Shown piece after piece: positions 6,001 through 9,000 of a stretch of DNA of 64,000 bases (positions within the stretch are counted from its first letter, which is position 1; every line of letters begins with the position of its first letter). Position numbers: made by a program. The stretch is from the NCBI RefSeq assembly GCF_055900595.2, contig NZ_CM148325.1; one strand, 5' to 3'.

Positions 6001-9000
6001 CTGTTGCCAAATGGCATAAAGGCTGGATCCCACCGGTTACTACTGCCGCAAGACTTCCTTCAGTGTCCCGGGTAAGCCGCTGGTTGATGCCCTGGAGAAT
6101 AATCAGGGGTGAAGAAAATTATGCTTTCCGATTTATTAGTCTGATGTGTGAAAAAGAACCGGAGTTGAAAATAGCGCAGCAACTGGTACTCGAGTTCTAC
6201 CGTATTCTGAAAACCTAAAATAAATCACAGCTAAGCAGCTGGTTCACTCGGGTCCACGAAAGCGGCTCAGCAGAACTTCGGTGCGTAGCTGCGGGGATGG
6301 AAGCTGATGCTGCGGCTATATGTGAGGCAATCAGCAGTCGCTGGAGTACTGGTGTTGTCGAAGGTCATGTAAATCGCCTGAAGGTGCTGATACGCCAGAT
6401 GTATGGTCGAGCCGGACTTGAACTACTTAGGCGGAGGGTAATGAGTCCACTGGCATGAAAATCTTCACCTAGGTTGAGGAAGAGCCACTTTTGCACTGTT
6501 CGTGACAGTATGGCCTTTATGTACTCACTTTGTTACCGGTAGCTGAATCATCACTACCGTGCTGCAAATGGTGGTGAACAGCATCAATTGTGGAATGAAT
6601 GTTGCCGAAGCGACCAATGCGCCTCGTTTCCACCATCAGTGGTTGCCGGACGAGCTGCGTGTTGAAAAGGGTTTAGTCCGGATACGCTCAAGCTGCTGGA
6701 AGCAAAAGGTCAGAAAGTGGCGCTGAATGAGGCGATGGGCAGCACGCAAAGCATTATGGTTGGGTCGGATGGTGAGTTGTACGGCGCATCCGACTCGCGC
6801 TTGGTGGATGATTTAACGGCGGGGTATTAATTGACATCCCCCGGCGCAGTGTGCCGGGGGATAATGGTTTTATGCGGTCAATAATCGTCCGGGATTATCG
6901 ATACAGAGTTTTTTGAGGATCGTTTTATCGACGCCGCGCTCCGCCAGATAGGCCAGAAAAACATCTGGAACAAATCCCCAGCCATTACCGCCATTTTTAG
7001 CCCACATTTGTTTAAGGAAGACATCGTGGCTGAGAACAAGCTGATCGGCGTATCCCAACTCAATGAGATGAGCGACGGCATCGGCAGTCTCCTGCACCCC
7101 TGGCGCTATTCCCTCTTTCGGGAAGGTAATGTCTAGGCCAATCATGTCGAATTCCAGCCAGACACCCTTATCAAGCATTTTCCGCTGATACGCCACGTCT
7201 TTTCCTGACGGATCCGAGTGTGCGAGAGAGACTTTATTTGGCGAGACGCCCATTTCACCTAACACAATGTCGAGTACTTCATCACCGCGACGAAGCCAGC
7301 CCGGCATGTGAATATTCATCGCCACATGAGGATTGTTAATCTGTGCCAGCGAGGCAGCCCGCAAGCTGTTATGCTCGGCTTCGGTAAATGTCGGTGAGAC
7401 ACCTATTTCACCGATCATTCCGGCACGAATATCCGTATCGCCAATCCCTTGATTCAATTCTTTATCAATCGTTGCCGCCAGTTCATCAACCGTTTTATGA
7501 ATTCTCTGGCTTTCAAATTTTTCCAAGTAGGGACCGGAGGAAGCAACAATATTCAGACCTGTTTTTAATGCGACTTCTCGTAATGCCTGCGCATCTCGTC
7601 CGATAGACTCAGACCCTGTGGCATCAACAATGGTGCGACCACCGAGCGAGATAAAGTTATTAATTTCGAAGATCACATCTTCAATAGGTTTGCGGTCCAT
7701 ATTATCAGCGCAGCAATAAGGTGATCTTACCCAGCAATAGTGGACACGCGGCTAAGTGAGTAAACTCTCAGTCAGAGGTGACTCACATGACAAAAACAGT
7801 ATCAACCAGTAAAAAACCCCGTAAACAGCATTCGCCTGAATTTCGCAGTGAAGCCCTGAAGCTTGCTGAACGCATCGGTGTTACTGCCGCAGCCCGTGAA
7901 CTCAGCCTGTATGAATCACAGCTCTACAACTGGCGCAGTAAACAGCAAAATCAGCAGACGTCTTCTGAACGTGAACTGGAGATGTCTACCGAGATTGCAC
8001 GTCTCAAACGCCAGCTGGCAGAACGGGATGAAGAGCTGGCTATCCTCCAAAAGGCCGCGACATACTTCGCGAAGCGCCTGAAATGAAGTATGTCTTTATT
8101 GAAAAACATCAGGCTGAGTTCAGCATCAAAGCAATGTGCCGCGTGCTCCGGGTGGCCCGCAGCGGCTGGTATACGTGGTGTCAGCGGCGGACAAGGATAA
8201 GCACGCGTCAGCAGTTCCGCCAACACTGCGACAGCGTTGTCCTCGCGGCTTTTACCCGGTCAAAACAGCGTTACGGTGCCCCACGCCTGACGGATGAACT
8301 GCGTGCTCAGGGTTACCCCTTTAACGTAAAAACCGTGGCGGCAAGCCTGCGCCGTCAGGGACTGAGGGCAAAGGCCTCCCGGAAGTTCAGCCCGGTCAGC
8401 TACCGCGCACACGGCCTGCCTGTGTCAGAAAATCTGTTGGAGCAGGATTTTTACGCCAGTGGCCCGAACCAGAAGTGGGCAGGAGACATCACGTACTTAC
8501 GTACAGATGAAGGCTGGCTGTATCTGGCAGTGGTCATTGACCTGTGGTCACGTGCCGTTATTGGCTGGTCAATGTCGCCACGCATGACGGCGCAACTGGC
8601 CTGCGATGCCCTGCAGATGGCGCTGTGGCGGCGTAAGAGGCCCCGGAACGTTATCGTTCACACGGACCGTGGAGGCCAGTACTGTTCAGCAGATTATCAG
8701 GCGCAACTGAAGCGGCATAATCTGCGTGGAAAGCTTCTTTCATTCGCTGAAAGTGGAATGTATCCATGGAGAACACTTTATCAGCCGGGAAATAATGCGG
8801 GCAACGGTGTTTAATTATATCGAATGTGATTACAATCGGTGGCGGCGGCACAGTTGGTGTGGCGGCCTCAGTCCGGAACAATTTGAAAACCAGAATCTCG
8901 CTTAGGCCTGTGTCCATATTACGTGGGTAGGATCACCGCACTCTTGACATAAGAGTGCGGTCCGTGGAAAACGGAGTTGAAAAAATGGTGTCTGAAAGAA

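Follow-up and report, generated by a model that had tools for sequence, protein, structure and literature searches.

A relic IS3 copy, probably dead for transposition, at the edge of a hypervariable island upstream of cobUST in Escherichia coli

The 64,000-nt stretch of E. coli DNA analysed here (the window) contains a single IS3 copy on the + strand at 7722-8935, and this copy is very probably a transposition-dead relic bordering a hypervariable island that lies upstream of cobUST. IS3 belongs to the IS3 group of the IS3 family, is 1258 bp long, carries orfA and orfB joined by a -1 frameshift at an A4G motif, specifies a DD(35)E transposase and generates a 3-bp target duplication. At 1214 bp the copy in the window is 44 bp short, it is predicted to encode no active transposase, and it stands where a block of about 13 kb is present in strain Seattle 1946. 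What follows is the evidence for the decay of the element, for the rearrangement at whose scar it lies, and for the distribution of both among complete E. coli genomes.

Both ends of the element could be placed exactly. The left end, at 7722, starts with TGATCTTACCC, the beginning of the element reading TGATCTTACCCAGC, and the right end, at 8935, closes with GGGTAGGATCA; each end occurs once in the window. As a reference we used the 1258-bp IS3 of E. coli C (L002:301-1558), which is labelled in RefSeq as 'IS3-like element IS3 family transposase, programmed frameshift'. Alignment revealed only two differences from it, a 44-bp gap and one C>T substitution, giving 99.9% identity across all 1214 retained bases. 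Like known IS3, the copy has TG...CA ends, inverted repeats, orfA and the frameshift motif. The left inverted repeat, which is imperfect and about 39 bp long (7722-7760, + strand), and the right one (8897-8935, + strand) are both intact, identical to the reference and unique in the window. orfA (7787-8086, + strand), present in the list of open reading frames with 99 codons, is also intact and identical in DNA sequence to the reference, and its product gave a weak match to the NCBIfam model of the IS3 transposase N-terminus. The overlap of orfA and orfB retains the -1 frameshift site, with the AAAAG slippery sequence at 8049-8053 (+ strand) identical to that of the reference; the A4G motif has been named for IS3 (PMC8860574). 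Unlike known IS3, the copy lacks 44 bp of orfB and with them the frame for the catalytic glutamate; a complete DD(35)E motif and the 1258-bp length are both missing, and the copy is neither flanked by a target duplication nor autonomous.

The gap corresponds to reference positions 1001-1044, and its edges in the reference are two direct copies of CTGCGTGGAA lying 44 bp apart. The repeat is exactly 10 bp, since the bases beside its two reference copies differ, and a sole copy survives in the window at 8722-8731 (+ strand), marking the deletion junction. As a consequence, orfB (8083-8814, + strand) is out of frame past codon 214 (...KRHNLRG) and continues through 29 aberrant codons, specifying unrelated residues, to a stop at 8814. 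The C-terminal 58 codons (8732-8905, + strand) are now in another frame, where an open reading frame at 8726-8905 ends with ...ENQNLA, matching the reference C-terminus. In intact OrfB exactly 35 residues separate the aspartate of HTD from the glutamate of CVE, the DD(35)E distance that characterises the IS3 family (PMC1525189). The first reference copy of CTGCGTGGAA encodes L-R-G, and the second, read in the other frame, encodes C-V-E with the glutamate of DD(35)E itself. Both aspartates are thus kept (WAGDITY and HTDRGG), while the glutamate of NACVESFF is out of frame. Consistent with this, the Pfam rve match reaches only profile position 93 of 102, and rve_2 and rve_3 no longer match, all three being found in the intact protein. 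Alignment to a reference IS3, as the original prediction had proposed, located the deletion and showed orfB not to be intact, and it bore out what had been stated from the sequence alone, namely the length of 1214 bp against 1258 bp, the loss of frame right after ...KRHNLRG, the deletion between short direct repeats, and the removal of part of the catalytic C-terminus.

Judging from the sequence, OrfA and a truncated OrfAB can still be produced from this copy, but no active transposase. Since both inverted repeats remain, it could move only through a helper IS3. The second difference from the reference, the C>T at 8896 (+ strand), is synonymous (AAC>AAT) and marks a sub-lineage of the copy at this locus. 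RefSeq annotates the same element in strains M160133 and F5505-C1 as 'IS3 family transposase, frameshifted'.

Beside the element stand the triplets AGG (left) and CCG (right), and neither a 3-bp nor a 4-bp duplication is present. Nor would shifting the ends of the copy produce one, since they are placed just as in the reference. To the left lies a pseudogene of a phosphotriesterase-related gene, php (6870-7721, - strand), which keeps 852 of 1035 bp and lacks its first 61 codons, with the breakpoint of homology at 7721; the Pfam PTE match in this remnant begins at profile position 37. Strains Seattle 1946 and W409 have the whole gene, 1035 bp coding for 345 aa. To the right, a conserved spacer with IS4 and cbi gene fragments (8936-10393, + strand) leads up to cobU, whose identity was confirmed and which starts at 10394. 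The spacer shows 98-100% identity in CFT073, in K-12 and in all IS3-bearing loci examined, and in CFT073 and K-12 what adjoins it on the left is the region upstream of a TonB-dependent receptor gene.

In Seattle 1946 both flanks are connected by uninterrupted DNA. Window position 7721 aligns to position 1502 of the Seattle 1946 locus and window position 8935 to position 14523, and the 13,020 bp in between, with about 11 genes, are replaced by IS3 in the window. The order in Seattle 1946 is php, a DMT transporter, a glutamine amidotransferase, a PfkB kinase, a transposase fragment, YaiO, an acetyltransferase, a GT2 glycosyltransferase, a PIG-L deacetylase, a PAPS reductase, a ParB-like protein, a TonB-dependent siderophore receptor, a palindrome described below, and cobU. 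We take this order as a proxy for the ancestor and not as a proven ancestor, since island borders vary at this locus: MLI106K1 and W409 differ, and W409 has an IS1 beside cobU. MLI106K1 was considered as the undeleted ancestor and rejected, because its island joins the spacer at window position 9120 and the sequence corresponding to 8936-9119 is absent. Of the original prediction, the differing AGG and CCG flanks are thus confirmed, and a rearrangement truncating the Php-like gene is supported by the comparison with Seattle 1946.

A perfect hairpin directly abutting the right end had also been pointed out. The segment at 8936-8960 (no strand assigned) does fold, with a 10-bp stem, and a 46-nt stretch at 8930-8975, which includes a second small stem, has a predicted energy of -15.3 kcal/mol (z = -6.9 versus shuffled sequences). 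The comparison with other strains refines this observation, in that the hairpin is the right-hand remnant of a 41-nt palindrome, 10 bp being left of the original 18-bp stem. The palindrome is intact in CFT073 and K-12, where it reads TCCACGGACCGCACTCTT-GACAT-AAGAGTGCGGTCCGTGGA and forms a perfect 18-bp stem with a 5-nt loop; the 61-nt stretch tested there gave -24.4 kcal/mol (z = -9.3). In the window the IS3 end interrupts the left arm after TCCACGGA, leaving the hairpin with its 10-bp stem. The intact palindrome was found in 2210 genomes, in one place each, and a search with the palindrome matched one place per genome in 2753 genomes (median 1, maximum 2). The palindrome is a pre-existing local feature and not part of the IS. 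It had no match in Rfam at E up to 1. A role as an intrinsic terminator was considered and discarded, the terminator scan being silent and no T-run following on either strand (the hairpin is flanked by AAAACGG on the + strand and ATACAACC on the - strand), and so was membership of a dispersed REP/BIME-type repeat, because the palindrome is single-copy. As with REP/BIME palindromes that serve as IS targets (PMC1525189), the IS end lies inside an arm of a strong palindrome; unlike those, the palindrome here is single-copy, and its targeting is judged from one IS3 copy.

The frequency of each junction was determined in a database of 5426 complete E. coli genomes. IS3 itself was found by megablast in 4685 of them, at roughly 18,500 places, and few genomes match the 1214 bp in one piece, most matching in two pieces that span 1258 bp. 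With 60-bp junction probes and an E-value cut-off that excludes half-matches, the left junction between php and IS3 was detected in 487-491 of the 5426 genomes (about 490, or about one in eleven, ~9%) and the right junction between IS3 and the palindrome in 541. The junction of the 44-bp deletion occurred at 570 places, including 23 on plasmids, in a total of 535 genomes. IS copies are classic points of assembly collapse, and an artefact of assembly or sequencing in a copy that is truly full length would leave such a gap; this explanation can be practically dismissed, given the identical junction in 535 independently sequenced complete genomes, plasmids included, and the exactly repeat-bounded anatomy of the gap. 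Full-length IS3 at the same junctions was found in roughly 30 of the ~490 genomes with the left junction. Matches to a 269-bp probe spanning the deletion junction and the right junction were sampled at even steps down the ranking, and of the 60 taken, ~50 were the deleted form at this locus, ~4 were full length at this locus and ~6 were the deleted form elsewhere. The T at 8896 occurred in ~2 of the 60, among the top-ranked matches only, most copies at the locus having C. The nearest complete genome is that of M160133, which is 100% identical over the 3222 bp of left flank and has one difference in the 1458 bp of right flank. It and FDAARGOS_1285, the closest complete relatives, have one IS3 place per chromosome, and in these two the copy is simply an inherited scar.

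Related genomes bear on the order of events. In IPCEC31, A12 and OkiPb01690, an intact 1258-bp IS3 lies between identical AGG and CCG junctions. As full-length IS3 stands at the same junctions, the rearrangement is independent of the 44-bp loss, and on this comparison of sequences the two are separate events. The simplest order is the rearrangement, then the 44-bp deletion, then the C>T, although this order is not proven. At this locus, 904A occurs with full-length (A12) and with deleted copies (GPEC1240, F8704-2), and 904G likewise occurs with both forms, so that all four combinations of the 904 SNP and the deletion exist there. When SNP patterns of the right flank were compared, haplotypes of full-length and deleted loci interleaved, and no separate full-length group was seen. 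The mixed SNPs together with the interleaved haplotypes mean that gene conversion or recurrent deletion must have taken place at least once.

Further loss has occurred on the left side. In strain 53, 1217 bp are deleted between GTCCATATTA in php and its twin in the right inverted repeat, and all that is left of IS3, the terminal 24 bp at its right end with the 10 bp of the shared repeat included, is joined to php. In the window, the two partners of this 10-bp microhomology lie at 7695-7704 and 8912-8921 (both + strand; for the latter, the H36 match starts at query position 37). From subtraction of the junction counts, ~45 genomes have a stump form like that of strain 53. Ten genomes, F5505-C1 among them, have this IS3, lacking the 44 bp and with T, at an unchanged right junction but with another left flank, namely a DUF932 gene of a CP4-44-like island with CTT beside the element. 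The right junction is hence constant although the left side takes three forms, with php, with DUF932 or, as in strain 53, with almost all of the element excised, and this pattern fits one fixed anchor with repeated leftward loss. Strain 53 and the ~45 genomes resemble the products of imprecise IS3 excision, with or without the IS excision enhancer (PMC8860574), in keeping part of the element. They differ in that the end points here lie in the 10-bp microhomology GTCCATATTA, while that study found at most 6 bp, and the 10-bp microhomology points to slippage or microhomology-mediated repair over enhancer-driven excision.

These observations allow a three-step scheme to be proposed. In the first step, full-length IS3 would have come to separate php from the palindrome that lies upstream of the TonB-dependent receptor gene, at the cost of the ~13 kb between them and of the 3-bp target duplication. 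As the invariant junction is the right one, we favour a scenario in which IS3 inserted at the palindrome and an adjacent deletion then extended leftward into php. In the second step, slippage between the 10-bp repeats in orfB would account for the observed removal of 44 bp, with the shift of frame and the loss of the catalytic glutamate of DD(35)E. The third, which is seen directly in the alignment, is the synonymous C>T in the sub-lineage of the window. IS3 is known to make adjacent deletions of various lengths rapidly (PMC8860574), and missing duplications usually arise from recombination between IS copies or from adjacent deletion, the latter often stepwise (PMC11708052). The locus has parallels in the adjacent deletions of the Lenski long-term lines, which involve IS150, and in those that IS3 makes on reporter plasmids (PMC11708052, PMC8860574), with an IS at the border of a multi-kb deletion, no duplication, and further loss from the same end, here in related genomes. 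It differs from them in that the two-step history is inferred here and the precursor insertion was not found.

The main competing account of the missing duplication is that two IS3 copies in the same orientation, one in php (AGG) and one in the palindrome (CCG), recombined by RecA, deleting the 13 kb and leaving a hybrid copy. This predicts exactly the AGG and CCG flanks observed, and such recombination is a standard cause of missing duplications (PMC11708052). The copy that gave rise to the later DUF932 variant was by then dead in cis, and F5505-C1 has 11 IS3 places; for that variant, recombination is the more natural explanation, since the copy could not act in cis and many other IS3 copies exist in the genome. 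Two independent insertions are needed, however, and neither is seen in the 5426 complete genomes or in metagenome contigs, and the IS3 sequence offers no testable hybrid signature. Both simple insertions were searched for. A chimeric 60-mer joining the left side of the palindrome as in CFT073 to the IS3 left end, as expected for insertion in the palindrome with a CCG duplication, was absent from the 5426 genomes and also from JGI metagenome contigs, and the same two collections lacked the IS3 right end followed by AGGATCGTG..., as expected for insertion in php with an AGG duplication. Neither precursor having been found, either junction could be the original one, and the loss may have taken one step or two. 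Recombination of two copies is a credible account that we nevertheless regard as falling short of probable, almost as likely as adjacent deletion. Of the suggestion in the original prediction that the copy mediated an adjacent deletion or rearrangement, the link between a rearrangement and the missing duplication stands; adjacent deletion by the copy is favoured, with recombination nearly its equal.

The deleted form is not confined to this locus. The identical 44-bp deletion was found near paaY in strain 74-2 with a perfect TGT duplication, inside a heptosyltransferase gene of ET896 with a perfect GTG duplication, in an integrative conjugative element (LR883000), and on plasmids pTW10722_147 and pDEC5B-5, where duplications are lacking. 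These perfect duplications are those of L017 (TGT) and L019 (GTG), and L014, L018 and L020 have no perfect one. Eighteen PLSDB records contain the deleted form, many with two copies, the ETEC plasmids having two each. Deleted copies elsewhere have SNP backgrounds 200A, 511A and 904A, and overall the backgrounds are mixed (200A, 511A, 904A and 1219T), the deletion occurring on at least four SNP backgrounds and at at least six loci. The deleted form has the makeup of a non-autonomous derivative, with both ends intact, no functional transposase, and several loci with duplications of their own. Mixed backgrounds of this kind would be explained equally well by helper-driven movement, recurrent slippage and gene conversion. 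We can only tentatively suggest that the deleted IS3 is a recurrent product of a built-in slippage hotspot, the two 10-bp repeats around the catalytic glutamate, at which IS3 copies would be inactivated again and again, or a non-autonomous derivative mobilised by a helper.

A stronger proposal would be that the deleted IS3 is a maintained and useful variant spread by helper-driven transposition and not by descent alone, either as a non-autonomous element or through a truncated OrfAB that damps transposition. The presence of the deleted form at no fewer than five further loci, perfect 3-bp duplications at two of these, several SNP backgrounds, intact inverted repeats and orfA, and ETEC plasmids with two copies are what such a variant would show. 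Yet ~80% of the occurrences are one inherited locus, the copies flanked by duplications are equally explained by deletion after insertion or by gene conversion, and there is no sign of selection or of inhibitor activity, which makes this proposal improbable. A search of the literature on the 44-bp variant and on the cobU/php/IS3 locus returned nothing specific.

The IS3 of the window, a copy that has decayed where a deletion left its scar, is of a kind that is well understood, and the processes involved are those of routine IS decay. RefSeq already lists the element as a frameshifted IS3 transposase pseudogene, and the importance of the copy extends little beyond good annotation. It is a stable lineage marker, present in ~9% of complete E. 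coli genomes, and the scar marks the loss of a ~13-kb block, to which, in strains like Seattle 1946 and CFT073, ibrAB-like genes and a TonB-dependent siderophore receptor belong. The nested set of forms, running from the full-length element through the loss of 44 bp and the C>T to a new left flank or a 24-bp stump, provides a tidy natural case of IS decay through short-repeat slippage. If the 10-bp repeats are indeed a recurrent hotspot of self-inactivation, this would be of modest interest to IS specialists.

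The left side of the dead IS3 copy (positions 7722-8935), which carries a 44-bp deletion in orfB, was occupied differently in other genomes. Ten genomes, among them F5505-C1 (L001:5178-7214), have the beginning of a DUF932 gene from a CP4-44-like island joined to the left end of the dead IS3, with the right junction unchanged. The DUF932 joining is a second left-side event, on an IS3 copy that was already defective. In about 45 genomes, almost the entire IS3 was deleted together with 17 bp of php, the phosphotriesterase-related pseudogene, by way of the 10-bp microhomology GTCCATATTA, and of IS3 only the terminal 24 bp at its right end remained. 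This deleted locus is found at L006:3987-4040 in strain 53, equivalent to positions 7695-8921 of the window.

At the right junction, a palindrome is reduced to a stump at 8936-8960. Its intact form (L005:3994-4034 in CFT073) is a perfect 41-nt palindrome with an 18-bp stem and a 5-nt loop, conserved as one copy per genome in 2210 complete E. coli genomes. Both a terminator and an Rfam family were ruled out for this element, which precedes a TonB-dependent receptor gene by approximately 200 bp.

Further gene remnants around IS3 were inferred by homology to the annotation of M160133, the closest relative among complete genomes. On the left (within ~4800-6730) they comprise a pseudogene for an ISL3 transposase and part of a gamma-glutamyltransferase gene, and on the right (within ~9900-10260) fragments of an IS4 transposase and a cobalamin-biosynthesis gene. 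In K-12, the spacer that lies to the right of IS3 in the window contains an IS5. The window (10394-10939) and M160133 both carry an intact cobU. A frameshifted cobU is annotated in F5505-C1, FDAARGOS_1285 and 98203, genomes that also have in common the IS3 copy marked by the synonymous C>T at 8896. Further downstream lies a siderophore island (~24000-57000), which presumably resembles the yersiniabactin high-pathogenicity island. It contains genes for a TonB-dependent siderophore receptor at 27708-29729 and for an enzyme that adenylates aryl acids at 29860-31437, and 33338-49042 is taken up by two giant ORFs (3163 and 2041 aa).

At the window's IS3 locus, all four combinations of 904G or 904A with the full-length or deleted element were present, counting the window and the corresponding loci L012, L015, L021 and L011 of other strains, which implies either that IS3 copies have exchanged sequence by gene conversion or that the 44-bp deletion arose more than once. 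The deleted IS3 also occurred in 18 PLSDB records (H301-H318), 11 of which held two copies each, and human stool was the main origin among records with a stated source. At unrelated loci of strains 74-2 (L017:1526-2739) and ET896 (L019:1526-2739), deleted copies sharing SNP 200A are flanked by perfect 3-bp target duplications, TGT and GTG, respectively. These two copies, with their duplications and 200A, hint at helper-driven transposition of the dead IS3 or at independent repeat slippage.
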